DNA from: a virus
Taxonomy: Duplodnaviria; Caudoviricetes
Length of the DNA stretch: 51,883 bases
Virus record (IMG/VR): IMGVR_UViG_3300030380_000566
Coordinates: 1 to 51,883 of that record
Reading direction: 5' to 3' (one strand)
Shown here: piece after piece, positions 6,787 through 41,100 of the stretch
Layout of the letters: each line of letters opens with the position of its first letter
Position numbering within the stretch: the stretch's first letter is position 1
The notes under the pieces: model-generated
What the model was told of the DNA's origin: nothing
Seen by the model: the letters and a program-made list of their open reading frames with translations, nothing else
The model's database searches: none
Translations under genes and position numbers: made by a program

Positions 6787-7114
6787 ACAAGATATGAAAA
6801 AAGATATGCCTATGCCCAAGCCAACAATGCCAATGCCTCCTGAGGGTGCTAGAACTTTAAATGAAGCTATGCCTCCTGAGGGTGTTGATGTTATGAAAAG
6901 ACCAGACCAATCTATACAGATGGTTCTACTTTCAAGGCTAGAAAGCATGTCACCAGAAGAACTAAAAGAATTAGATAGAGCAATAGACAGTAAAACTGCT
7001 AAAGTATTAATGAAATTACTACCAGAACTAGAGGAACTTATAAATAGATCTATGAGTGCTAAAGGTGGTGCACCTAAAGATGATATGGGTGCTCTTGGTG
7101 GTATGATGGGATGA
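6779..7114 (+). CDS. Met/Pro-rich hypothetical protein
   Basis: Start moved to ATG 6779 (SD AAGGAG; MAEQDMKKDMP...). MPPEG occurs twice. Confidence 0.6.
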   Translation: MAEQDMKKDMPMPKPTMPMPPEGARTLNEAMPPEGVDVMKRPDQSIQMVLLSRLESMSPEELKELDRAIDSKTAKVLMKLLPELEELINRSMSAKGGAPKDDMGALGGMMG

Positions 7115-7545
7115 CTATAAGGTCTGCTAACCTTTTAGATACATCCGCATTAATATTAATGATTATGAAGATGCACACAGAATCAAAAGCTGATATACCA
7201 CCTCTAAATGTTAGTAAAGTTAGTGATGCTGTTACTGGTGCTATAAAGACTGGGTTAGTATACGTTGCTCTTGAGAAAGAGAACTTAATAGGTTCTATAG
7301 GTGGGGTAGTATCTACTGATTGGTTCTCTGAAGAGAAGATTTTAGGTGATTTATGGTTTTATGTAGATGATAAACATAGATCCTCAAATACAGCAGTTAG
7401 ACTAATAAAACAATTTATTTCTGCTGGTAAAAAAGCTAAAATAAAAATACGATTAGGACATATTTATTTTGGTGATATGGAACGTAAAGATGCTTTTTAT
7501 AATAAGTTAGGTTTTAATTTAATAGGACAAATATATTCGGAGTAA
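7111..7545 (+). CDS. GNAT-family N-acetyltransferase
   Basis: IRSA start, WFYVDDKHRSSNTAVRLI (motif A-like) and FYNKLGF (motif B). Confidence 0.75.
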   Translation: MTIRSANLLDTSALILMIMKMHTESKADIPPLNVSKVSDAVTGAIKTGLVYVALEKENLIGSIGGVVSTDWFSEEKILGDLWFYVDDKHRSSNTAVRLIKQFISAGKKAKIKIRLGHIYFGDMERKDAFYNKLGFNLIGQIYSE

Positions 7546-14732: not shown

Positions 14733-14850
14733 ATTTAATCTCCCTTAGTTTATCTAATACTTTTGACCAATAGTTGTAAGCCCAAGTATCTCTTTTTAGA
14801 TAGGTGAGGTGTTTCCTCACCCTTTCTATTAGTTTATCTATTTGTCCCAT
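14710..14850 (-). CDS. Small hypothetical protein (46 aa)
   Basis: Not in the ORF track. MGQIDKLIERVRKHLTYLKRDTWAYNYWSKVLDKLREIKFANKCSR* fills the gap and overlaps both neighbours. Confidence 0.45.
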   Translation of the reverse strand: MGQIDKLIERVRKHLTYLKRDTWAYNYWSKVLDKLREIKFANKCSR

Positions 14851-15539
14851 TCTACATGCCCTTTCTTTACATCCCAAGTTAAGTCTTTAGCCCTACCACC
14901 TTTTTTAATAAAGGCTTCATATTGAATACCATCAGGATTATCTAAAATTATTTGCATAGAGTGCCAACCGAATGTATTAACTTTTCTAGGATTATCTTTT
15001 ACTTTAGGATATATCATAGTAAAGCTTTTTTCTAGAACTCTTTTAAATTGTCTTTTAGGTAGTATCTCAATAACTGATACTACTTTTTTATTCTTACCCC
15101 AGAACTCGTGAATAGGTTGACTACCACCTTGGTCTATGACCCAGCCACCCTTTACAACTTGTACATGACGAGTGGTAGTGATGATATAGGTTGAAGTAAA
15201 GTTACAACTCCACTTTACATACTTTTGTAAACTTACAGGATAATATTCAAAATTTAATTTGCTACGTTTTGTAAGTCTACCATTTATAGTTATATTTTCC
15301 CATGTTTTATGCTCTCTAAACTTAGCATTTAATTTATGTAACACTAACATTCTTTCACCATCATAAGTGCTACCCTTCCACTTATTAGATTTTTTACCAA
15401 CTCTTTTATGTAACTCCCATGACTGTTTAAAAGTTATTCCCATGGCTATAGCTATAGCAGTCACACCACAATTAGGACCACCACGCTGGTCATCAGGATT
15501 TACAAAGCCTTCAGGTTTTTCATTAATAATTTTTTTCAT
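14838..15539 (-). CDS. Two-domain early protein (possible Cys-His peptidase-like N-domain plus NPR...DLxWD C-domain)
   Basis: NCGVTAIAIAMG...TRHVQVV...VID; C-terminus NPRKVNTFG...FIKKGGRAKDLTWD. Has its own promoter and SD. Confidence 0.55.
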   Translation of the reverse strand: MKKIINEKPEGFVNPDDQRGGPNCGVTAIAIAMGITFKQSWELHKRVGKKSNKWKGSTYDGERMLVLHKLNAKFREHKTWENITINGRLTKRSKLNFEYYPVSLQKYVKWSCNFTSTYIITTTRHVQVVKGGWVIDQGGSQPIHEFWGKNKKVVSVIEILPKRQFKRVLEKSFTMIYPKVKDNPRKVNTFGWHSMQIILDNPDGIQYEAFIKKGGRAKDLTWDVKKGHVEWDK

Positions 15540-16379: not shown

Positions 16380-19166
16380 TTAAGTTAATTTTCTCCACTT
16401 GTCTACATACACTTTTCTAAAGCCTTTTTTAACAAGACCTTTTACTAAATACCAATCACCTATTTTACCCTCTTCAACTATCTGTTTACCTATGCGAGTA
16501 TATTTAAATCTATCAATGGTACTTATAATTGGACCAGTGTCATCTTCAAAAGTTAAGTTTAACCATAAATGATTTCTATCAACTCTACGTCCACCTCTTT
16601 TAGCTAAGTTGACTGTCTCGTTCATATCTCGTAAGTTTTTCTCTGTTAACTTGCCGAAGAATACAAATCTTCCTGGTCGGTCTGCATCTAGTTCAGATAT
16701 GTCAGTAATGTCTGAAACTATGCCATGCTTCTCTGGTTCTTTTTTAATATGGCCAAACCTTCTCTCACATTCAAATATATCATCATATGGAGTAGTGCCT
16801 TCATTTAAAAGTTTTTCTTGTCTTGGGGTAAGGTTTATTTTTTCAATGCGTCTATTAATAATATCTTCAGCAACTTTTAATCCTACACCTTTTATATTTG
16901 TTAGCCCACCTATTAGTTTACCTTCTTGTACAGACCAATTTAGTTGAGATAAAAATTTATCAAAAGGTCTATACTCAAAACCTTCCTTAACTAATTCTCT
17001 TAATAATTTTATCCCTTGAGTTTCATCCCTAACATTTCGCAAACATGCAGCAGCAAACTCAAGAGGAAACTTAGACTTAAGAACACAACACCAATAAGAA
17101 AGTAAACCATAACTAATAGCATGAGACCTATTAAAAGCCCAAGACCCCATAGTGTTGATATTATCCCATATCCTTTTTGCATCAGCTTCTTCAAGACCAT
17201 TTTCCTTTGCTCCTATTTTAAACCTTTCCCAATATTGGTCAAAGAACTCTTGACCTAATGATTTGCTCATGGCTTTACGCAGTTGTGATATATCTTCCCA
17301 AGATAGCTTACCTACATGACGACCTATTTCCATAACTTGTTCTTGGTATACAACTATGCCATAAGTTATTTCAGTTATATCTTTTACTATTGGGTGAAGA
17401 TACTCTACTGGTTTTGCTCCTGTGTGCCTACTTATATATTGAGTAGTTCCTCCAGAAACTAATGGACCAGGACGACCCAAAGCAGTCAGAGCAGCAATCT
17501 CTTCAAACTTATAAACTTTCATTTGTCTAGTTAAAGACTGTAGAGCATAACCCTCAAACTGAAATATACCAGAATACTTTTCATCATTTAAAACTTTAAA
17601 AGCTAGTTTATCATCTAATGGATAGTCTACTAATTTTTGTCGTTCCCATTTGACTTGGTCTAATACATCTTGAAGAACTGATAGAGTTCGTAAACCTAAA
17701 GCATCTATTTTAAGTAGGTTTAATTTTTCTGCATCATATTTATCAACTTGTAAGGCTTGGGTTTGTTCATTGAAAGAACAATATTTATTAACAGCATTTT
17801 CAGTAACAACTATACCAGCAGCATGTACCCCATTGTGCCTAGCATGAAACTCCATTTGTGAAGCTATGCGCATTTGAGGATACTTTTTTAATATTTCTCT
17901 ACCGATATCTAAATCATTAAATGTATCCATAATACAAAAAGCAGCACGAGCATCACCACCACTCCTTTCAATAATAGCACCTTTTAAATCATTAACTTCC
18001 CATTGTGGTATATTTAATTCTTTAGCTACTTCAGTGATAGTGCTTTTAGCTTTATATCTACTTATTGTACCTAGCTTAGCAACATTAGCATTACCATACT
18101 TTTCTCTCAGATAATCATATACCATATCTCTTCTATCATCTTGAAAATCTATATCAATATCTGGTAAGTCTGCTCTGTTAAGATCTATAAATCTTTCAAA
18201 TAATAAATTATGTACCAGTGGGTCAACATCAGTAATGCCTAACAAATAACAAACTAAAGACCCAGCACTACTACCTCTAGCTGGTCCAACTAGCATATGT
18301 TCCTTAGCATAGTTAACCATATCAGCTATAACAAAAAAGTAATCCTCATACTTTTTATTATCTATTAAACCTAATTCATAAACCAATCTATCATAGTATT
18401 TTTTGTCTTTTAGGTTGATGTTTAATTTAGTGGCACCTTCTTGGCAAAGTTGTAATAATGTCTTTTTACTGTTAAACTTAACCATATTGGCTTGTTTTAA
18501 TGTCGCTACGCACACTTTAGCTATTGAATAGGTATTATCTATTGCCTCTTTTGGAGCCCAATTTACACAATCTTTATATTCCCACTCGTTTAAAATATGC
18601 ATAGGTTTTGTTCTATCTGTTCTGTTTCTACCTACTAAAACCTGATAAACTTTTCTATCGGATATGGTTGGGTAGTAATTATCGCTGGTAGCTACTAATG
18701 GGAACTTTTTAGTTAAACAACTCTTATCACTTATAGGGCTACATTCAGCAAATATGTTTTCATTAGCTTTAGGTAACAATCCCCAATTAGGATTAGGACC
18801 ACTAAATATTATAACATTATCACTCACATCAAATAATTGTGTATAGTCTAATCTAGGCACATAGTAGAAATTTTCTTTCTTTAATGATTCAGAGTTTAAC
18901 CTATATATCTCTTCAAGACCTTTATTGTTCTTAGCTAAAAATGTCATATAATTGATAGGTTGTTTTGTACGTTCTTTACTATCTTCAACAAAACCTATCT
19001 CAACTCCGTAGATTGGTTTTTTGCAGATCTTCGAAAATGGCACATGTCCCCATGTACTGTTATCTGTTATAGCTACAGTATCATTATTACAAGTCTCTAT
19101 AACTTTATTAAGTGGACCATAAGCTTTACGGAAAGAATATTCTGTGCGTACTTTTAAATTAATCAT
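16380..19166 (-). CDS. dnaE: DNA polymerase III alpha subunit (family C)
   Basis: GPARGSSAGSLVCYLLGIT, LLFERF, PDIDIDF, HAAG, KIDALGL, YQEQVM and FNRSHA motifs; degenerate PHP domain; C-terminal OB fold (LTFEDDTG). Confidence 0.95.
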   Translation of the reverse strand: MINLKVRTEYSFRKAYGPLNKVIETCNNDTVAITDNSTWGHVPFSKICKKPIYGVEIGFVEDSKERTKQPINYMTFLAKNNKGLEEIYRLNSESLKKENFYYVPRLDYTQLFDVSDNVIIFSGPNPNWGLLPKANENIFAECSPISDKSCLTKKFPLVATSDNYYPTISDRKVYQVLVGRNRTDRTKPMHILNEWEYKDCVNWAPKEAIDNTYSIAKVCVATLKQANMVKFNSKKTLLQLCQEGATKLNINLKDKKYYDRLVYELGLIDNKKYEDYFFVIADMVNYAKEHMLVGPARGSSAGSLVCYLLGITDVDPLVHNLLFERFIDLNRADLPDIDIDFQDDRRDMVYDYLREKYGNANVAKLGTISRYKAKSTITEVAKELNIPQWEVNDLKGAIIERSGGDARAAFCIMDTFNDLDIGREILKKYPQMRIASQMEFHARHNGVHAAGIVVTENAVNKYCSFNEQTQALQVDKYDAEKLNLLKIDALGLRTLSVLQDVLDQVKWERQKLVDYPLDDKLAFKVLNDEKYSGIFQFEGYALQSLTRQMKVYKFEEIAALTALGRPGPLVSGGTTQYISRHTGAKPVEYLHPIVKDITEITYGIVVYQEQVMEIGRHVGKLSWEDISQLRKAMSKSLGQEFFDQYWERFKIGAKENGLEEADAKRIWDNINTMGSWAFNRSHAISYGLLSYWCCVLKSKFPLEFAAACLRNVRDETQGIKLLRELVKEGFEYRPFDKFLSQLNWSVQEGKLIGGLTNIKGVGLKVAEDIINRRIEKINLTPRQEKLLNEGTTPYDDIFECERRFGHIKKEPEKHGIVSDITDISELDADRPGRFVFFGKLTEKNLRDMNETVNLAKRGGRRVDRNHLWLNLTFEDDTGPIISTIDRFKYTRIGKQIVEEGKIGDWYLVKGLVKKGFRKVYVDKWRKLT

Positions 19167-19701
19167 TTAAGTGTCCTTCTTTTTTATACCATTTTAAAAC
19201 TTCAATAGTAGCCTTAACATCGTCTATGGCTCTGTGAGCACCTTTGTGTTCCTTACCTGTTACCTCTAAATAGATGTCTGTAAGCTTTCTTTTTATACCC
19301 CAAACTTTTTCTCCTACTTCTATTGTACATAAATGTTTAGGTGGCCATGGGAACTTTATCAACTTATCAATTCTAATTAAATTATACTTTAACACATTGG
19401 AATCAAAAGGTAAGTTGTGTGCAGCTAAAACTTTTTCTCCTATAAAAAATTCTACTAACTTATCATAGTAAGCTATGAAGGGTGGTTGGTCTTTTAGGTC
19501 TTCATTTTTAATACCTGTTATTTTAGTTATCTTGGGTGATAGTTCTTGGTTGGGATTAACTAAGAACCCCAACTCCTCTTTTACATTTAAATCTTTATCT
19601 AACTTAACAGCACCGAACTCTATTATATAAGGTTGCTGTTTTATATCTACTGCATCTGGCATAACTAAGCCAGTAGTTTCAAGATCCATTACTATCATCA
19701 A
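19159..19701 (-). CDS. DEDDh 3'-5' exonuclease (epsilon/DnaQ-like)
   Basis: DLETTG, AHNLPFD and HRAIDDV motifs; overlaps the dnaE start. Confidence 0.9.
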   Translation of the reverse strand: MMIVMDLETTGLVMPDAVDIKQQPYIIEFGAVKLDKDLNVKEELGFLVNPNQELSPKITKITGIKNEDLKDQPPFIAYYDKLVEFFIGEKVLAAHNLPFDSNVLKYNLIRIDKLIKFPWPPKHLCTIEVGEKVWGIKRKLTDIYLEVTGKEHKGAHRAIDDVKATIEVLKWYKKEGHLND

Positions 19702-19969
19702 TATCCTCCAAAATAAATGAATAAACTCCTAAGTCATGTATTGAGTCTTGGTGCTTGTCTGACCATTGATTACAGTACCTAATTAATTTAGTTACCATCA
19801 TGTTTACTGCACCTAGCCTATTCCAATCTTCTACTGAATTACATTTTAAACCATTAGGGAAAAGACTTTTCATAACCTCCCCATGTATCATGTAAGAGTG
19901 TCCATATCTTTTACCTTTATACTCTGCAGTCTTTAGAGCTGTTTTAATTTTATCAGCGAGCATCTTCAT
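19679..19969 (-). CDS. Small all-alpha protein, DUF1599 / nucleotide-modification-associated-domain-like
   Basis: K...YG.S, KLIR and DSIHDLGVYSFIL resemble the D..xDL..Y signature of DUF1599/MazG-like helical proteins. Confidence 0.5.
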   Translation of the reverse strand: MKMLADKIKTALKTAEYKGKRYGHSYMIHGEVMKSLFPNGLKCNSVEDWNRLGAVNMMVTKLIRYCNQWSDKHQDSIHDLGVYSFILEDIDDSNGS

Positions 19970-20168
19970 CTCCTTCTAATTTAAGTTGAGCAATCTCGTC
20001 TTGAAGTTCATGACAAGTATCCATGAGTTGTTCTATTTTAGCTTCATGGTCTTCATAATTATTTATTATATCTTCAAGCTTATCTCTCAAAGTAGGTCTC
20101 ACATCTAATATACGAGCAACAGGCTCTCTATCTAATTCAATATTATTATTTATTATTCTTAGTTCCAT
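19953..20168 (-). CDS. Hypothetical coiled-coil protein
   Basis: 71 aa, acidic heptad pattern, SD AAGGAG. Confidence 0.55.
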   Translation of the reverse strand: MELRIINNNIELDREPVARILDVRPTLRDKLEDIINNYEDHEAKIEQLMDTCHELQDEIAQLKLEGDEDAR

Positions 20169-20618
20169 TTAATAATCTCCTTTGTTTACTTGTAGACAAG
20201 TTAAGCCTAAGTCTTCTCTGTACATTTGTACTACATCATCTCTATCTTCTAATACAAACCAAACTCTTTTAGGATTAACATATTCTTTTACAATTTTTAA
20301 TTTAACATCCGCATCAGAGTTTTTATCCCCATCATTACGCATTAATAAATTATCATAAGGTATTTCATTTAATCTTAGCCAGTGTTGAGTTATCTTCTTC
20401 CACTTTTTCTCTCTGGCTGTAATTAAATAAATTTTAGTTTCTGCATCTTTTAGATTCCTTACAATATTAGCTATATCTTCAATACAACCAGATGTTGTTG
20501 ACCGAGCATTAAACTCATCATAATCTTTTTCAGTGAGTTCATCTTTTTCTAATATTTTAGCCCTGTCACCTATAGTAGCTAATGTACCATCAATATCGCA
20601 TAATATAATTCTTTTCAT
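20169..20618 (-). CDS. HAD-family phosphatase (like the phosphatase domain of polynucleotide kinase)
   Basis: DIDGTLA, LITAR, LLMR...D..VK, EDR and CLQV motifs; no kinase domain. Confidence 0.85.
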   Translation of the reverse strand: MKRIILCDIDGTLATIGDRAKILEKDELTEKDYDEFNARSTTSGCIEDIANIVRNLKDAETKIYLITAREKKWKKITQHWLRLNEIPYDNLLMRNDGDKNSDADVKLKIVKEYVNPKRVWFVLEDRDDVVQMYREDLGLTCLQVNKGDY

Positions 20619-20619
20619 A

Positions 20620-21273
20620 TTACACCTTTTTGTTTAATGGTTTAGCCATTGAAGGAGCAGACCACTCTTTTGGAGTTAAAAATGGTTCTGCCCAATCATG
20701 TACTTTAATAACTTCAGCTACCATAAGCTTGAAGACCTCTCTGTATTCACCTTGTGCTCTTGGGCTTAATCTAGACTTAGCCATTTCATGCAAAGTTCTT
20801 AAATTAAATTTAGCTACGATATTAGTGTGAATATTTGTAGGCAATATACCTCTAGCATCTTCTGCATTTACTCCTGAGTTTCTTAACTTTTGATAATACT
20901 CATTTATAGTTTTCATAGCTTCATCATAATGATGTTTACCTGCTGGGTACTTTTCTATTTCTTCAGGTACAAAATAACCGAAGCCTTGCATATCCACTGT
21001 ACGTTGTGATTGTTGTGCGTAGCTACCTTGTCTTGTGCGTACAAACTGATGAGTAAAGCCACGAGTAACTTCTCTAATATCAAATACATAATCAACAAAC
21101 TCCCATGATGATTTTATAGTATTTAGCATATAATCCAGTTCAGCTTGTTTTTTATCTTCTGGCCAATCTTTAATTTTAGCATACGCATCATCTTCATTCA
21201 TTAACCTAGTATTCTTAGTAAACAATAAAAGGTTTTTAGCATCGCTAGTATAATTTATTAATTTAACCTTCAT
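20620..21273 (-). CDS. thyX: Flavin-dependent thymidylate synthase (variant motif)
   Basis: HQFVRTRQGSYAQQSQR (ThyX motif with RTR in place of RHR), EDARGILP, NLRTL and R....AQGE.R. Confidence 0.85.
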   Translation of the reverse strand: MKVKLINYTSDAKNLLLFTKNTRLMNEDDAYAKIKDWPEDKKQAELDYMLNTIKSSWEFVDYVFDIREVTRGFTHQFVRTRQGSYAQQSQRTVDMQGFGYFVPEEIEKYPAGKHHYDEAMKTINEYYQKLRNSGVNAEDARGILPTNIHTNIVAKFNLRTLHEMAKSRLSPRAQGEYREVFKLMVAEVIKVHDWAEPFLTPKEWSAPSMAKPLNKKV

Positions 21274-21712
21274 TGTCTAACTCCTCTATCAACTCATTGG
21301 TAAACTGATGAGGAACAGCCAACATTACATAAGCCTCAAAATTACTACCACTCTTTTTAATATTAACTTTAACTCTTTCAAAGTTTTCAATACGCATATT
21401 AATAGTTTCAATAAAAGCTACTTCAGTATTTTGAGCTGAACCTCTTGATAAATAATATTTTGATTTGCCTTTTACTTCACTAGCTATCATATCAGCTGCT
21501 GTACGTTTTGCTGCCATTGTTGCCATATCTAAGGCAAGTTGTTTATGTTTAGATTTACCATACCCACTGACTACAGTGCTACCTTCTACTGTTGGTGGGT
21601 CAATGTACCATATTGGGTCAGGAGAGTTAAAGTTATAAGAACACCCTCCTAAAAATTTTATTACTATGACAAATATTACAATGCCTATAAATAATTTTAT
21701 GTATTCTCTCAT
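21263..21712 (-). CDS. Lipoprotein (LPP20-like)
   Basis: Hydrophobic signal ending in lipobox LGGC; P.WY..PP and G.G.S...QLA...A...AK pattern. Confidence 0.6.
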   Translation of the reverse strand: MREYIKLFIGIVIFVIVIKFLGGCSYNFNSPDPIWYIDPPTVEGSTVVSGYGKSKHKQLALDMATMAAKRTAADMIASEVKGKSKYYLSRGSAQNTEVAFIETINMRIENFERVKVNIKKSGSNFEAYVMLAVPHQFTNELIEELDNEG

Positions 21713-21713
21713 A

Positions 21714-22634
21714 TTATATTCCTTTCTTACTGTGTAGTTGAATTAAATAATTATCACCAATCATATTATCAATAACATTTATATCATCAACAATATCATC
21801 AAGCAATAACTGCCTCCATGTAGCAAACCTACCCACAGAAAAAATATTATACTTTTGTGTTAAATACAAAATAAATTCTTTACGAACTTTTTCTTCTATT
21901 GGTAAAAGTTTACCATACTTCATCTCAGACACTGTTATGTATTTTAACTCATATGGCTTTACACCAAAATCATCTTTTAAAAAACTAAAAATATCTGAGC
22001 CGTCTTTTGTTGGTCTAGAAATGTACTCTGCCATAACTACATTACCAGTTATTGATACTCTGTAGCAATCTGTTATATCACTAGGATAATAAACAGTCTG
22101 ATACAAAGATGTTTTAGGATTAGTTATAACAGCCCTTTTAGACCAAATAGTCTTAAACTTAAAATCAGGTTTATTTGGCCAACTAATTATCTTCATCATA
22201 GTCGGCATAGGTATTGTGGATAAAATAGGTTCTCTAAAATTGTTACAAGCTTCATAATTTAAAATTTCATTATACTCAATATTTAAACTATTAGCCATTA
22301 AGCTTATAAATTTTAAAGGTGCTATGTATCTGTGTACTGGTTCAAGATTACTAATAGACCTATCATAATAAGCACCTGTTACTTTTAAAGAATATTTATT
22401 GCTTAAAAATAAATCAGGTTTAGTAATCAACCTATCTTCATACTTTATAGCCTTACTAACTTTTACCTTTTTAAAAGGGATACCAGTGGCTATAGCTACC
22501 TTATCAGACCTAAACCTTAACAATGCGTCATGGTTGTTGGGTAATGAAGGTTGTCCTTCTTTTATAGTTGGATTATATCTGCGTAACATATTAGCAGTTA
22601 ACAGACCACCCATACCTGCACCATAGATAATCAT
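21714..22634 (-). CDS. FAD/NAD(P)-binding oxidoreductase-like protein
   Basis: N-terminal Rossmann motif IIYGAGMGGLLTA, internal STIPMP and C-terminal VGRFATWR, like the GR motif of the UDP-galactopyranose mutase / amine oxidase fold. Confidence 0.7.
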   Translation of the reverse strand: MIIYGAGMGGLLTANMLRRYNPTIKEGQPSLPNNHDALLRFRSDKVAIATGIPFKKVKVSKAIKYEDRLITKPDLFLSNKYSLKVTGAYYDRSISNLEPVHRYIAPLKFISLMANSLNIEYNEILNYEACNNFREPILSTIPMPTMMKIISWPNKPDFKFKTIWSKRAVITNPKTSLYQTVYYPSDITDCYRVSITGNVVMAEYISRPTKDGSDIFSFLKDDFGVKPYELKYITVSEMKYGKLLPIEEKVRKEFILYLTQKYNIFSVGRFATWRQLLLDDIVDDINVIDNMIGDNYLIQLHSKKGI

Positions 22635-23200
22635 CTCTTGAACCTAATTCTGCCTTTTGCTAGATCCCATGCTAGGTCTTGACGTCTACCACCTTTAGCT
22701 ATAAAATCTTCATATGTTAACCCTTTATTTTTAATAACAATATCTAAAGAACTAAAGCCATGACTTTCTCTACGTCTTGGGTTTACAATTAAGTCTGTGG
22801 TAAGCTTTCTGCCTTTAAAAAATGACTTACGTCCTCGAGTTTCTTCACCATTTAAACTTCTATTAGACTTAGGTTTTTTATTAGTAGGTTCTGGGTCAAG
22901 CTTACGGATGATACCTTCAGTTCTTAGTTTTTCAAAAAGATTCATTAGTCGCTCTGCTCCAGTCCTGCGGTCAGCGAATCTTCTAACCCTTTTAACTTTT
23001 GTTCTATCGGTATAACTATTATAAAGTTCTACCATATCATCAGAAGTTATTGTACTGTAATTATCAATTAGGTCGTTTATGTTTCTAATTAATATACCTG
23101 ATTTAGCGTCGTCTTTAGCTTGAGTTATTGTATCAAAACAAGCCACAGTGCTAAGTTGATTCTTACTATACTTTTTTAAAAATAATTTATATATCGCCAT
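22631..23200 (-). CDS. Basic hypothetical protein with NPR...DLAWD C-domain (possible DNA binding)
   Basis: C-terminus NPRRRESHGFSSL...YEDFIAKGGRRQDLAWD is paralogous to that of 14838-15539. Confidence 0.6.
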   Translation of the reverse strand: MAIYKLFLKKYSKNQLSTVACFDTITQAKDDAKSGILIRNINDLIDNYSTITSDDMVELYNSYTDRTKVKRVRRFADRRTGAERLMNLFEKLRTEGIIRKLDPEPTNKKPKSNRSLNGEETRGRKSFFKGRKLTTDLIVNPRRRESHGFSSLDIVIKNKGLTYEDFIAKGGRRQDLAWDLAKGRIRFKR

Positions 23201-26715: not shown

Positions 26716-27537
26716 CTACATTACGTCAGAGTCATTATCATCATCTTTAGAATCTTCTGGGGCAACTTTTACATCGCCTGACTTAATTTGGTCTCTGAAG
26801 GCTCTAGCTGATAAATAGATTTGGTCACCATTTTTAAGTTGCTTCATGATGCCTCCACTATCACTATCAAACATAGGCTCAACATCCCAACCAAACCATT
26901 CACCTTTATCATTACTCATAGGCACAGTCTTTAACTTATAAGCATTATAAAAGATAGCAGGATTAAACACCCCATTACCATCAGGCTTAGGAACTTGTAG
27001 AGCAGCAGTCATACTATTCCATCTACGAGCAACCTTTAACATACTACTTGTCATAGATATTAAAGCTTGAGTAGTGGCTCCTGTTTTTTCATCATACAAG
27101 TACACAAAGTACTCTGCTGTAGTTACTACTTCATTACCCTCAGTGGTGATGTCTTTCATTGAACCTTGAGGCTTCTCACACATCTCAAGGATACTGCTAT
27201 TAGTGCCATGGTCTTTAACTAAACCACCACCAGCATCTCTAGGCTTCCACTCAATGTACTTTCTATTATAGTTAACTGGGATTACTGTTACACCCTTTTC
27301 TCCACTATAGATATCTTTAGTTACTGAGTTCATAATATCCCCAACCTCAGCACCTTCAATATACTTACCATCCCTTTTATTAACTTGTGGGGAATTAGTT
27401 TGTAAGACTTGAAGTCTGGGTATCATGTAGTCTTCGTTGGTCATACCTTCTTGACCGACACTAGCATCTTCCATTAGCATAGCTGGGTCAATTGTTGATA
27501 CTGTAGTATCATTCTTTTTTTGTACTGCTTTCACCAT
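26716..27537 (-). CDS. Putative ssDNA-binding / annealing protein
   Basis: IPRLQVLQ..SPQV, YIEW, N.KG.WFGW and an acidic tail (EDSKDDDNDSDVM); upstream of the primase. Confidence 0.6.
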   Translation of the reverse strand: MVKAVQKKNDTTVSTIDPAMLMEDASVGQEGMTNEDYMIPRLQVLQTNSPQVNKRDGKYIEGAEVGDIMNSVTKDIYSGEKGVTVIPVNYNRKYIEWKPRDAGGGLVKDHGTNSSILEMCEKPQGSMKDITTEGNEVVTTAEYFVYLYDEKTGATTQALISMTSSMLKVARRWNSMTAALQVPKPDGNGVFNPAIFYNAYKLKTVPMSNDKGEWFGWDVEPMFDSDSGGIMKQLKNGDQIYLSARAFRDQIKSGDVKVAPEDSKDDDNDSDVM

Positions 27538-27538
27538 A

Positions 27539-28132
27539 TTAATTACTCCTTTTTATAACGGCACGATGGCCAGTGAAAATTTTAAAAACGTCATAGGGAA
27601 CTTCTTTACCATTGGCTATTTGTTCTTTGAGCCAAGAGTTAAGTCTCCTAGGATTTACTTCAGACTTGTTAGCAAAGTCTAATTCTTTATCATTTAATAT
27701 CTTTTCAAATTCTAAAGCCTTAGTATCTTCACCAGTTTGAAACTGAACTACATAGTTGTTACTAATTAAAGACTCAGCCTTATTACTTCTAAGGTAAGTG
27801 TAACAGCTATCTTTACGTTGTACGAGTTCCTGCTTGAGTTCACCTTTGGCTCTATCTATGGCACCATTACTCGGTGTACTACCAGAAACTACATCATTCA
27901 CTGAAACCTTTGTACCATCATTTAACTTAAACTCTTTTACGTTAAGGTTGTTCATTAACTCTGGTAAGTCTATTTCAGAAACTTGTCGTAAGTTCTGCTT
28001 CGCTAGTTTGAGTTGTTCTTCAAGACGGATTACCTCATCTTCGAGTTGGATCTGTCTTTCAGCTAACTCACTACATGCACCTATTTCATTGGATGAAGGT
28101 GCTACATCCTCTAGCAAGTTTATTTTAGTCAT
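27539..28132 (-). CDS. Conserved replication-module protein
   Basis: Coiled-coil N-terminus, LPELM...FKL.DG.KV and V.P..L..W.KE motifs. Confidence 0.6.
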   Translation of the reverse strand: MTKINLLEDVAPSSNEIGACSELAERQIQLEDEVIRLEEQLKLAKQNLRQVSEIDLPELMNNLNVKEFKLNDGTKVSVNDVVSGSTPSNGAIDRAKGELKQELVQRKDSCYTYLRSNKAESLISNNYVVQFQTGEDTKALEFEKILNDKELDFANKSEVNPRRLNSWLKEQIANGKEVPYDVFKIFTGHRAVIKRSN

Positions 28133-28499
28133 GCTTTATTTCCTTTCTAAATTCCAAGGTGGTCGGCATGTACCAGCCAGCTCTTCTATCCCTATCACCT
28201 TGCTCGATGTTACGTTCCCATCTGAGAACATTAATGATTGGAGATACTTCTGCAGCCAAAGCTGATACTATCATCACTGCTATTGGATCTCCACCTCCTG
28301 CCCAAAGTATATAGTCATTGGGACTGAAGTCTTTTAATAACCTACGAGCTTTCAAGATGGATGGTCCTGTTAAGAACTGAGGCTTTTCATTAGGCTCAAA
28401 TATAACCTTCATTGAACCATAACGAGTAGCATCTGTTAAATCAGGAGTCCATCCAAATTTATTCTCTCGTGGTCGTTGTACTAAGTAGACTGTTGCCAT
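28125..28499 (-). CDS. Conserved hypothetical protein (alpha/beta, GDP motif)
   Basis: VYLVQ...DLTDATRYG...DYILWAGGGDPIA...LRWER; coupled to both neighbours. Confidence 0.6.
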   Translation of the reverse strand: MATVYLVQRPRENKFGWTPDLTDATRYGSMKVIFEPNEKPQFLTGPSILKARRLLKDFSPNDYILWAGGGDPIAVMIVSALAAEVSPIINVLRWERNIEQGDRDRRAGWYMPTTLEFRKEIKHD

Positions 28500-40701: not shown

Positions 40702-41100
40702 ATGGCTCATCTCCATGCAGCAAACTGGGACAACGACCCAGAAACAAACGTTCCTAAAAACTTACCAGAACCTACAGGATGGCGAGTTTTAATTCAACCA
40801 CAAGCCCCAAAAAAGAAAACCACAGGTGGCATTTATTTACCATCACAATCTCAAGACAATGAAGAGTATTTAACAGCACATGGTATTATATTAGCTGTTG
40901 GTCCTCTAGCATGGTGCGAAAGAGCATCAGGCAAACCATGGGAAGGTGGTAATTGGGCTAGATGTGGAGACCATGTTACCTTTGGAAAATATGCAGGACA
41001 AAAGCTTATCATAGAAAGAGTAAAATTATTACTTTTAAATGATGACGAGATTACTTCTGTATTACCATCAGGGTGCAACATACAAAATTATTTACCATAA
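40702..41100 (+). CDS. groES: Co-chaperonin GroES (phage-encoded)
   Basis: PTGWRVLI, KTTGGIYLP, AVGP, GD.V.FGKYAG and LLNDDEI motifs. Confidence 0.88.
   Translation: MAHLHAANWDNDPETNVPKNLPEPTGWRVLIQPQAPKKKTTGGIYLPSQSQDNEEYLTAHGIILAVGPLAWCERASGKPWEGGNWARCGDHVTFGKYAGQKLIIERVKLLLLNDDEITSVLPSGCNIQNYLP

Follow-up and report, generated by a model that had tools for sequence, protein, structure and literature searches.

The viral record IMGVR_UViG_3300030380_000566 (Duplodnaviria; Caudoviricetes) was analysed over its whole length of 51,883 bases, referred to here as the window, with a focus on a minus-strand block in which genes for a flavoprotein, a variant of the thymidylate synthase ThyX, a HAD phosphatase and a small helical protein lead into replication genes. 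The window is a whole virus record, about 95% complete according to CheckV, and assembled contigs from 20 of the 21 listed public runs contain part of it; where these runs have a label, it reads marine, seawater or viral metagenome. The phage itself is uncultured. Followed in the direction of transcription from 23200 to 16380, the minus strand encodes a 189-residue open reading frame (ORF), the flavoprotein (21714-22634, 306 residues), a lipoprotein-like ORF, ThyX (20620-21273), the HAD phosphatase (20169-20618), a 71-residue ORF (19953-20168), a 96-residue four-helix protein (19679-19969), a 3'-5' exonuclease of the DnaQ/RNase T type (19159-19701; PF00929, E = 3.5e-30; phrog_192) and DnaE, the alpha subunit of DNA polymerase III, with PHP, NTPase and finger domains (16380-19166; PF07733, E = 9.5e-70; PF17657; PF02811). 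Neighbouring genes overlap by 4, 11, 17, 23 and 8 nucleotides and otherwise abut.

The flavoprotein, ThyX, HAD and four-helix genes, hereafter the cassette, are transcribed together with the replisome genes. Between ~28.8 kb and ~12.3 kb, 19 ORFs of at least 90 amino acids lie on the minus strand, and the first convincing terminator-like site of this operon is found on the same strand at 15618-15604; a weak site with three G-C pairs lies within dnaE (17479-17463). A promoter scan was uninformative, returning 80 sites compared with 87 expected from shuffles. An initial annotation, made from the letters of the sequence, had described a tightly coupled block running directly into the exonuclease and dnaE genes, and this is what we find: all ORFs that it named are in place, with overlaps of 4-23 nucleotides or abutting ends. 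Its inventory was right for the named genes and incomplete, since two ORFs of 149 residues (21263-21712) and 71 residues had been overlooked. The Rossmann FAD (flavin adenine dinucleotide)-type protein with the motifs GAGMGG and GRFATWR was borne out in its motifs and fold class, as were the ThyX with an altered motif and the stand-alone HAD phosphatase. The small D..DL..Y protein is indeed modelled as helical, and only its assignment to DUF1599 had to be given up, as described below.

The variant ThyX and its partner proteins

The ThyX of the window matched the Thy1 domain (PF02511, E = 5e-39) with 134.4 bits against a cut-off of 24.8, over profile positions 1-189 of 191, and a search of the whole record returned this Thy1 locus only. 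When aligned to chain 3n0b of the Thermotoga maritima enzyme, for which the usual residue numbers are obtained by subtracting 12 from the chain index, the protein keeps E58, Q75, R78, R80, S83, S88, R90, R147, N163, R165, R174, Q180 and E182. All residues that bind or activate deoxyuridine monophosphate (dUMP), namely R78, R80, S88, R90, R147 and R174, are conserved, the last of which is described in the available text of one study as activating dUMP (PMC8316439). Replaced are H53 by I, R74 by H, H79 by T, E86 by Q, Y91 by T, N169 by E and H178 by R, and the signature R-H-R reads R-T-R, with the flanking Arg and Ser kept. According to the accessible parts of the ThyX literature, H53 is the conserved histidine stacked against both the pterin of folate and the reduced flavin (PMC11940539), and at the catalytic Tyr91 the Y91A substitution slows carbinolamine consumption more than 100-fold (PMC11940539, PMC8316439).

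The same losses recur in the aligned members of the clade. H53, H79 and Y91 are missing in eight out of eight flavoprotein-linked ThyX proteins aligned, which include those of a Vibrio podophage, a PB1-like phage, Wifcevirus WFC, the Rhizobium jumbo phage, Xanthomonas phage XcP1 and two marine relatives, and T or N stands in place of the central His. Two out of three comparison phage enzymes (Bacillus Wes44, Staphylococcus MVC) retain H53, RHR and Y91; the third, from mycobacteriophage Hawkeye, is itself a variant, with R-Q-R, no H53 and F at position 91. Judging from these residues, the window ThyX looks built to hold dUMP and flavin, with the folate-handling and leaving-group residues lost. 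The available text on the T. maritima enzyme also reports that it methylates dUMP with free formaldehyde and reduced flavin, without folate (PMC8316439), which establishes folate-free aldehyde chemistry at flavin N5 for the ThyX fold.

The flavoprotein begins with MIIYGAGMGG, a GxGxxG dinucleotide-binding motif, and carries GRFATWR at residues 268-274. It matched phrog_4828 (E = 1.8e-61) and no Pfam family at E ≤ 0.1, GLF included. Its family, which is almost wholly viral, counts 939 relatives when clustered at 90% and, at 50% identity, 1121 clusters, with E ≤ 1e-10 for 1018 of them; protein-atlas clusters are 95-100% viral, and the nearest named ones are small amine-oxidase-family proteins. 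An AlphaFold (AF2) model built from 34 sequences reached a mean predicted local distance difference test score (pLDDT) of 85. Among 48,161 representatives of the PDB, aligned with VIA-align, the best match of this model was the UDP-galactopyranose mutase (UGM) of T. cruzi (4dsg_A; Z = 20.1, root-mean-square deviation 3.6 Å, 297 of 306 residues aligned), followed by protoporphyrinogen oxidases (PPO; Z = 17.8-18.9, with 2ivd at 18.9), amine and amino-acid oxidases (Z of about 16) and renalase (14.4). Foldseek placed UGM, p-hydroxybenzoate hydroxylase (PHBH) and renalase together at the top. Sequence searches against the PDB, run with the single sequence and with a profile, gave nothing significant; the best hit was again UGM 4dsg, in a non-significant alignment (E = 0.25) that covers no more than an S-T-I-P strand and, near the C-terminus, the G-R-F-x-x-W-R motif. 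As modelled, the flavoprotein is a FAD-type two-domain protein of the UGM/PPO/amine-oxidase superfamily, and not a demonstrable UGM.

Across 19 divergent family members from six lineages, 23 residues are invariant, including H35, R40, R42, Y81, R92, R102, R192, K242, W273 and D279, a set that would suit an anionic, nucleotide-like ligand. One member of 506 residues, P0136, carries an N-terminal fusion to a YfbR-like 5'-deoxynucleotidase (PF12917, E = 8e-12); no fusion longer than 536 residues was found, in a search that is itself weak evidence. Complex prediction with two ThyX copies and the flavoprotein scored 0.00 in both runs, a result that weighs neither for nor against binding.

The HAD protein matched the HAD_PNKP family (PF25109, E = 1.4e-26; 93.8 bits against a cut-off of 27.6), as well as phrog_415 and phrog_505 'polynucleotide kinase', and its DIDGT nucleophile motif lies at residues 8-12. 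It is tied to the 96-residue protein through phrog_4889, the N-terminal part of which matches the HAD protein and the C-terminal part of which (positions 242-324, E = 2.8e-12) matches the 96-residue protein; in Pbunavirus, Wifcevirus, Carpasinavirus and Rhizobium phages, HAD and a DUF6378-like domain are fused in one protein. The 71-residue ORF, which has weak coiled-coil Pfam matches below the cut-offs, occupies the place of the linker in these fused proteins and is kept in most related loci. Read-through from the HAD gene into this ORF, where the stop at 20168-20169 abuts an in-frame ATG, was considered and rejected, as the spacing is out of frame in relatives such as locus L012.

The 96-residue protein carries the motif D-x3-D-L-x2-Y and was modelled by AF2 as four helices (pLDDT 90). 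It has no Pfam match of its own at E ≤ 1; nine out of 15 members of its family matched DUF6378 (PF19905, best E = 1.2e-5) and none of the 15 matched DUF1599 (PF07659), so that the earlier label was replaced by a place in the DUF6378 neighbourhood. Structure searches with the model gave nothing at E ≤ 0.001 in Foldseek and, in VIA-align, a best Z of 8.0 that corresponds to helical-bundle noise, and a profile search against the PDB returned chance-level POU-domain matches only (E = 0.06-0.2). As none of these matches is informative, we do not assign the protein a MazG-like fold.

Distribution and surroundings of the cassette

In a tblastn search of 50,697 phage records, the flavoprotein (E ≤ 1e-5) was found in 362 records and the ThyX clade of the window (E ≤ 1e-25) also in 362. 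The tallies for flavoprotein and ThyX run side by side in Pseudomonas (292 and 290), Escherichia (27 and 27), Serratia (9 and 9), Rhizobium (8 and 10), Xanthomonas (6 and 6), Pantoea (3 and 3) and Vibrio (2 and 2) phages. At E ≤ 1e-10, ThyX was found in 428 records, and the additional ones, including Gordonia (22), Bacillus (18) and Sulfolobus (7), are all missing from the flavoprotein tally. Among the IMG/VR loci, taken as the best 80 of 521 confirmed, ThyX comes next after the flavoprotein in 78, with the HAD gene present in 77 and the DUF6378-like gene in 75. The two loci without ThyX end less than 450 nucleotides past the flavoprotein gene (~100 in L004, ~420 in L058), and those without the HAD or DUF6378-like gene likewise break off shortly beyond the last gene that they contain. 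All 80 belong to the window's own lineage and therefore count as one observation.

The same gene order was found in Vibrio phage VA-RY-3, Pseudomonas phages Banzai, F8 and 14-1, Escherichia phage WFC and Xanthomonas phage XcP1, and the recurring cassette arrangement is not due to chance. Their DnaE homologues share 37-45% identity with that of the window, and DnaE, the exonuclease, an SNF2 helicase and a Pam3 gp34-like protein are likewise common to the window and these reference phages. A Rhizobium jumbo phage, RHph_TM3_3_6 (MN988524, 207 kb), encodes the flavoprotein, the variant ThyX and a HAD and DUF6378-like fusion (42% identity, E = 9e-22) within 7 kb, among genes for a dUTPase, a NUDIX protein and ribonucleotide reductase. 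This phage gave no DNA_pol3_alpha match in a search in which F8 and VA-RY-3 were positive, and its family-A polymerase lies ~75 kb from the cassette. The cassette thus appears as a unit of its own, tied to nucleotide metabolism and independent of DnaE. In mycobacteriophage Hawkeye, in turn, the variant ThyX-like gene lies beside DnaE with no flavoprotein gene within 4 kb, which makes the variant type wider than the cassette.

These surveys bear on three claims of the initial annotation. Its statement that PB1-like Pseudomonas phages carry a comparable block proved accurate, with 292 Pseudomonas records matching the flavoprotein and synteny observed. The expected co-occurrence was found for flavoprotein and variant ThyX (362 and 362 records), and its extension to DnaE turned out not to be specific. 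The role given to DnaE as the dedicated polymerase for incorporation is not supported, given a cassette in the Rhizobium phage without a DnaE match and a Hawkeye locus that combines DnaE and variant ThyX without the flavoprotein.

Relatives of the window phage carry further genes inside or next to the cassette. Many marine relatives (L015, L016, L017, L020, L023, L042, L057, L066, L079, L080 and L082; for example, L017:13138-14309) have a short-chain dehydrogenase/reductase (SDR) and a glyoxalase-like protein of ~170 residues between the DUF6378-like gene and the exonuclease. Their identities to the positional counterparts in Wifcevirus and Carpasinavirus (WFC gp066/gp065, XcP1_046) amount to 48% and 53-54%, respectively, which is more than for the flavoprotein itself. 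The Carpasinavirus copy of the ~170-residue protein has a weak Glyoxalase_4 match (E = 0.008), and the SDR of the relatives has weak Epimerase and RmlD matches. Vibrio phage VA-RY-3, which has the podophage form of the cassette, carries a sulfotransferase-like gene (PF13469, E = 5.8e-7; L001:8265-9020) between the HAD-like gene and the exonuclease, and ORFs resembling class-I S-adenosylmethionine methyltransferases lie inside the cassette in three loci (L014:12786-13349, L027:10917-11432, L033:10902-11438; Methyltransf_11, E = 1.4e-6 to 6e-3). Between ThyX and HAD, many relatives, including L019, L021, L023, L027, L029, L030, L033, L036 and L038 (for example, L021:2125-2649), carry a gene for a pyrimidine-dimer DNA glycosylase of the T4 endonuclease V type (PF03013, E = 1.8e-9), often with a small helix-turn-helix-like ORF beside it. 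One sub-lineage has an MraZ-like gene (PF02381, E = 1.1e-22) between the exonuclease and DnaE (L066:5941-6330, also L067-L070). With none of the SDR, glyoxalase-like, sulfotransferase-like, methyltransferase-like and glycosylase genes, the window represents the minimal version of the cassette.

The weak Epimerase and RmlD matches of the SDR, together with a sugar-nucleotide mutase as best structural match of the flavoprotein and small amine-oxidase-family proteins as its nearest named clusters, could indicate that flavoprotein and partners act on a sugar nucleotide, a cofactor or RNA and are merely carried in an early operon. We regard this as very improbable, considering that flavoprotein and dUMP-binding ThyX clade go together almost one to one even in distantly related phages, that one family member is fused to a deoxynucleotidase, that the family is almost entirely viral and that the flavoprotein matches neither GLF nor any other Pfam family.

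Two ORFs of the window adjoin the flavoprotein gene without counting towards the cassette. The lipoprotein-like ORF between flavoprotein and ThyX has a signal-like N-terminus with a Cys and an LPP20 match below the cut-off (E = 0.048); of the 80 related loci, just 16 gave a homologue, and the named phages gave none, which places it outside the conserved cassette, and it may be a moron. The 189-residue ORF (22631-23200, minus strand), the stop of which overlaps the flavoprotein start by 4 nucleotides, has a weak phrog_4730 match only, is kept within the marine lineage without a match in named phages and is treated here as a flanking gene, with no claim to cassette membership. It shares a C-terminal domain of 49 residues (45% identity, E = 1e-13) with a 233-residue ORF downstream of DnaE (14838-15539, minus strand), and this domain thereby brackets the cassette-replisome block. 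Further upstream in transcription order lie Pam3 gp32/33/34-like proteins, a primase of the archaeo-eukaryotic type and a UvrD-type helicase; downstream of DnaE follow a DUF6011 protein, the 233-residue ORF and the SNF2 helicase. The Pam3 gp34/gp33/gp32-like trio is located at 26716-28499, upstream of the primase, and its gp34-like and gp33-like members are shared with ORF051/ORF052 of Pbunavirus F8. Elsewhere in the window, an acetyltransferase-like ORF lies among the tail genes (7111-7545; phrog_1249, E = 7.6e-17) and a GroES-like co-chaperonin ORF precedes the head genes (40702-41100; phrog_3188, E = 5.7e-13).

Readings of the cassette

Among carriers of the cassette, the DNA of Pbunavirus has been analysed chemically. 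The available portion of a 2025 preprint by Yee et al. describes F8 DNA as resistant to enzymes with TG in their sites and reports, in F8 and 14-1, new nucleosides of mass 362 and 390 that replace about a quarter of thymidine (PMC12191111). Its authors interpret these as tetrose sugar-alcohol and cyclised aldopentose derivatives of thymidine and report the mark as a shield from host nucleases; within the same portion, Pbunavirus is stated to have no homologues of known modification genes (PMC12191111). No later gene assignment for the mark was found in the accessible parts of the literature searched, including the Banzai paper and a 2026 Pbunavirus preprint. In F8, the cassette consists of ORF065 (flavoprotein), ORF059 (ThyX) and ORF057 (HAD-DUF6378), followed by ORF056 (exonuclease) and ORF055 (DnaE).

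Between F8 and 14-1, identity is 97% for the flavoprotein, 94% for ThyX, 80% for HAD-DUF6378 and 94-99% for the flanking replication genes. By far the most divergent of the 37 F8 proteins compared with 14-1 is ORF070 (56.5% identity, 398 versus 434 residues), which has no Pfam family and no homologue in the window. A Pfam scan of ten further F8/14-1 proteins (including ORF070 and ORF066/069/071/075/076) returned no enzyme family, the only matches being a weak MazG-like one for ORF049 and a Pam3 gp33-like one for ORF052.

We propose, with a probability of roughly one half, that the block in the window is a minimal four-gene nucleotide-tailoring cassette that makes a non-canonical C5-substituted deoxyuridylate for phage DNA. 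The tight operon, the co-occurrence of its genes, its independence of the replisome, the ThyX losses, the P0136 fusion, the enzyme insertions in relatives, the Pbunavirus chemistry and the precedent of a FAD enzyme in another phage all point in this direction. That precedent is gp47 of PaMx11, which takes part in thymidine hypermodification and acts on DNA oligonucleotides, according to the available text (PMC8989533), and it bears out the earlier statement that flavoproteins act in such pathways. The modified pyrimidine nucleotide suggested by the initial annotation is strongly favoured for Pbunavirus by its hypermodified thymidine, as far as the accessible preprint text goes (PMC12191111), and would extend to the window phage by analogy.

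The analysis shows gene content, residue pattern, fold class and co-occurrence; what each enzyme acts on, in which order the steps run and that the window phage has a modified base at all are inferred, as follows. The ThyX paralogue, at the level of its conserved residues, would still bind dUMP and flavin. Without the residues for folate stacking and methylene transfer, it would add to C5 of dUMP a substituent other than the plain folate-derived methyl, or would halt earlier, with a hydroxymethyl, exocyclic-methylene or similar reactive intermediate. The flavoprotein would then perform another flavin-dependent reaction, with either this nucleotide or the group due for attachment as its substrate, as suggested by its strict co-occurrence with ThyX, its many invariant Arg, Tyr and His residues and the one 5'-deoxynucleotidase fusion. 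HAD phosphatase and DUF6378-like partner may dephosphorylate either the appended group or a canonical deoxynucleoside monophosphate that competes with the product. Finally, the product would enter phage DNA as a non-canonical thymidine and shield it from host nucleases, as in Pbunavirus, with the identity of the incorporating polymerase not essential to the cassette.

A more specific version, which we hold to be quite unlikely in this exact form, takes ThyX as a C5-alkylating enzyme that joins C5 of dUMP to an aldose or aldose phosphate, where the normal enzyme would transfer a methylene carried by folate. It would use the N5 carbinolamine/iminium chemistry of reduced flavin, which is known for both ThyX and UGM; the UGM-like flavoprotein would serve to open or activate the sugar, or else to reduce the flavin again, and the HAD protein would take the phosphate off the sugar. 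This would yield a C-linked polyhydroxyalkyl- or C-glycosyl-deoxyuridine, for which the marine lineage would need four genes only. By arithmetic, mass 362 corresponds to deoxyuridine (228) with H replaced by 1-deoxypentitol-1-yl (C5H11O4, 135) and mass 390 to deoxyuridine with H replaced by C-hexosyl (C6H11O5, 163). Both C5-sugar compositions have the same elemental composition as the thymidine derivatives of the preprint, and the masses fit this version.

The window was also searched for established modification genes. ThyA (PF00303), the start of known routes, gave no match in the 51,883-base record, with the control positive in ten out of 14 genomes. Among 49 window ORFs scanned with PHROGs, 19 of them also with Pfam and with some ORFs below 90 residues outside the scan, no glycosyltransferase, kinase, transferase or known hypermodification enzyme was found; these general scans, which included no dedicated profile, also gave no annotation as 5-hydroxymethyl-2'-deoxyuridine (5-hmdU) DNA kinase or aGPT-Pplase. 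Of the markers that the initial annotation had noted as not visible, the ThyA-type enzyme is indeed missing, and the general scans likewise gave no glycosyltransferase or kinase annotation. With no ThyA in the window, ThyX is the phage's only thymidylate synthase candidate, and the cassette could serve ordinary thymidylate supply: a divergent ThyX would make deoxythymidine monophosphate (dTMP) from formaldehyde or with another donor or reductant, the flavoprotein would be its dedicated redox partner, for instance a flavin reductase or oxidase dependent on NAD(P)H (reduced nicotinamide adenine dinucleotide or its phosphate) that replaces the lost NADPH/folate site, and the HAD protein would be a 3'-phosphatase of the T4 polynucleotide kinase/phosphatase (PNKP) type or a nucleotidase recycling the breakdown products of host DNA. 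ThyX retains all dUMP-binding and most flavin-binding residues and scores far above the Pfam Thy1 cut-off, folate-free methylation with formaldehyde and reduced flavin has its precedent in the available account of the T. maritima enzyme (PMC8316439), the neighbourhood in the Rhizobium phage (dUTPase, ribonucleotide reductase, NUDIX) is one of ordinary nucleotide metabolism, and a position beside the polymerase fits precursor supply. We consider this explanation, the main rival of the tailoring cassette, rather unlikely. Canonical ThyX needs no flavoprotein partner, and phage ThyX proteins with H53, RHR and Y91 have none; SDR, glyoxalase-, sulfotransferase- and methyltransferase-like insertions are hard to square with dTMP synthesis; and the chemically examined carriers, F8 and 14-1, have modified thymidine, with no other candidate enzymes found in the scan of ten further proteins.

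The restriction of the Pbunavirus mark to TG suggests at least one step after replication, and not simple incorporation by a polymerase. A route acting wholly at this level, in which the flavoprotein and possibly the ThyX-fold protein modify T or U in DNA according to sequence context, as gp47 of PaMx11 does, would account for a mark confined to TG and to about a quarter of T, as described in the accessible preprint text (PMC12191111), a pattern typical of DNA-level enzymes. It would also agree with the action of gp47, itself a FAD enzyme, on DNA oligonucleotides (PMC8989533, available text), with the many Arg and Lys residues that are invariant in the flavoprotein and with the glycosylase gene of T4 endonuclease V type that relatives carry between ThyX and HAD. 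ThyX, however, still has the arginines that bind phosphate, as is typical when the substrate is a mononucleotide, the 5'-deoxynucleotidase fusion and the dUTPase and ribonucleotide reductase neighbours point to the nucleotide pool, and the 306-residue flavoprotein has no recognisable DNA-binding domain, which together make this route improbable.

Several points weigh against the proposed tailoring cassette itself. DNA chemistry is known for Pbunavirus, and the window phage and its lineage are known from genes alone. The link between the Pbunavirus mark and the cassette genes is itself guilt by association. The different adducts of F8 and 14-1 despite near-identical flavoprotein and ThyX suggest that the adduct-determining step may lie outside the cassette; in that case, the cassette may make a common reactive base, with other genes deciding the adduct. 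As the replication genes are common too, much of the synteny with PB1-like, Wifcevirus-like and Vibrio phages may reflect the vertical inheritance of an entire replication module. Hawkeye, with a variant ThyX and no flavoprotein, implies that the variant residues alone need no partner, and loss of Y91 and H53 could mean altered kinetics or another carbon donor in ordinary dTMP synthesis. Finally, neither the SDR/glyoxalase-like pair nor a recognisable transferase was found in the window.

Significance and comparison with known systems

Which of the nuclease defences of its host, restriction included, a phage can evade is determined by hypermodification of its DNA, and Pbunaviruses rank with the most widely used phages in therapy against Pseudomonas. 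The cassette provides the sole enzyme-like candidates for the Pbunavirus adducts, is widespread, as the 1121 flavoprotein clusters illustrate, can be separated from the DnaE replisome and occurs, reduced to four genes, in marine phages that are abundant. This makes the window block a testable candidate for the sugar-decorated thymine pathway of Pbunavirus, and the loss from ThyX of exactly the residues for folate handling and methylene transfer renders the hypothesis directly testable. If true, this would be the first route to thymidine hypermodification that does not start from a ThyA-type hydroxymethylase, and a new reaction for the ThyX fold.

Taken one by one, the proteins of the cassette resemble familiar enzymes up to a point. 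With canonical ThyX (T. maritima TM0449, PDB 1kq4/3n0b), the window protein shares the Thy1 domain, the residues binding the phosphate and uracil of dUMP and several flavin contacts; it differs in the replacement of H53, H79, Y91, E86, N169 and H178 and in the second flavoprotein gene that always accompanies its clade. The flavoprotein is similar to UGM (T. cruzi 4dsg; bacterial 3hdq and 1i8t) in its N-terminal dinucleotide fold and C-terminal G-R-F-x-x-W-R segment, whereas identity is 12-16%, its length is 306 residues compared with 360-510, and PPO and amine oxidases are nearly as close. The HAD protein has the fold and the DxDxT nucleophile motif of the phosphatase domain of T4 PNKP (PF25109) but lacks the kinase domain, and other lineages fuse it to the DUF6378-like helical domain instead.

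As a pathway, the closest described counterparts are the 5-hmdU routes of phages M6, ViI, SP10 and PaMx11, which, in the available text of two studies, start with a dUMP hydroxymethylase of the ThyA family and continue with a P-loop 5-hmdU DNA kinase and aGPT-Pplase transferases (PMC8989533, PMC5889632). The window block is like them in being clustered near replication genes, in its proposed C5-substituted thymidine product and in containing a flavoprotein, as PaMx11 does with gp47, although the window flavoprotein is of a different subfamily from the MnmC1-like gp47.

The Pbunavirus-type flavoprotein-ThyX cassette is undescribed in print and is defined here by its gene content: a phrog_4828 flavoprotein, a ThyX without H53 and Y91, and a HAD and a DUF6378-like protein, all on one strand within a few kb. 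The window has this gene content. In Pbunavirus, HAD and DUF6378 form one protein and five small ORFs lie between flavoprotein and ThyX, whereas the window, known from its genes, splits this part into HAD, 71-residue ORF and DUF6378-like protein and adds the lipoprotein-like ORF. Between the two, the flavoproteins are 32% identical, the ThyX proteins 39%, the exonucleases 38% and the DnaE proteins 41%. Across this distance, the families, their order and their placement on a single strand are the same, and the residue losses in ThyX are identical.

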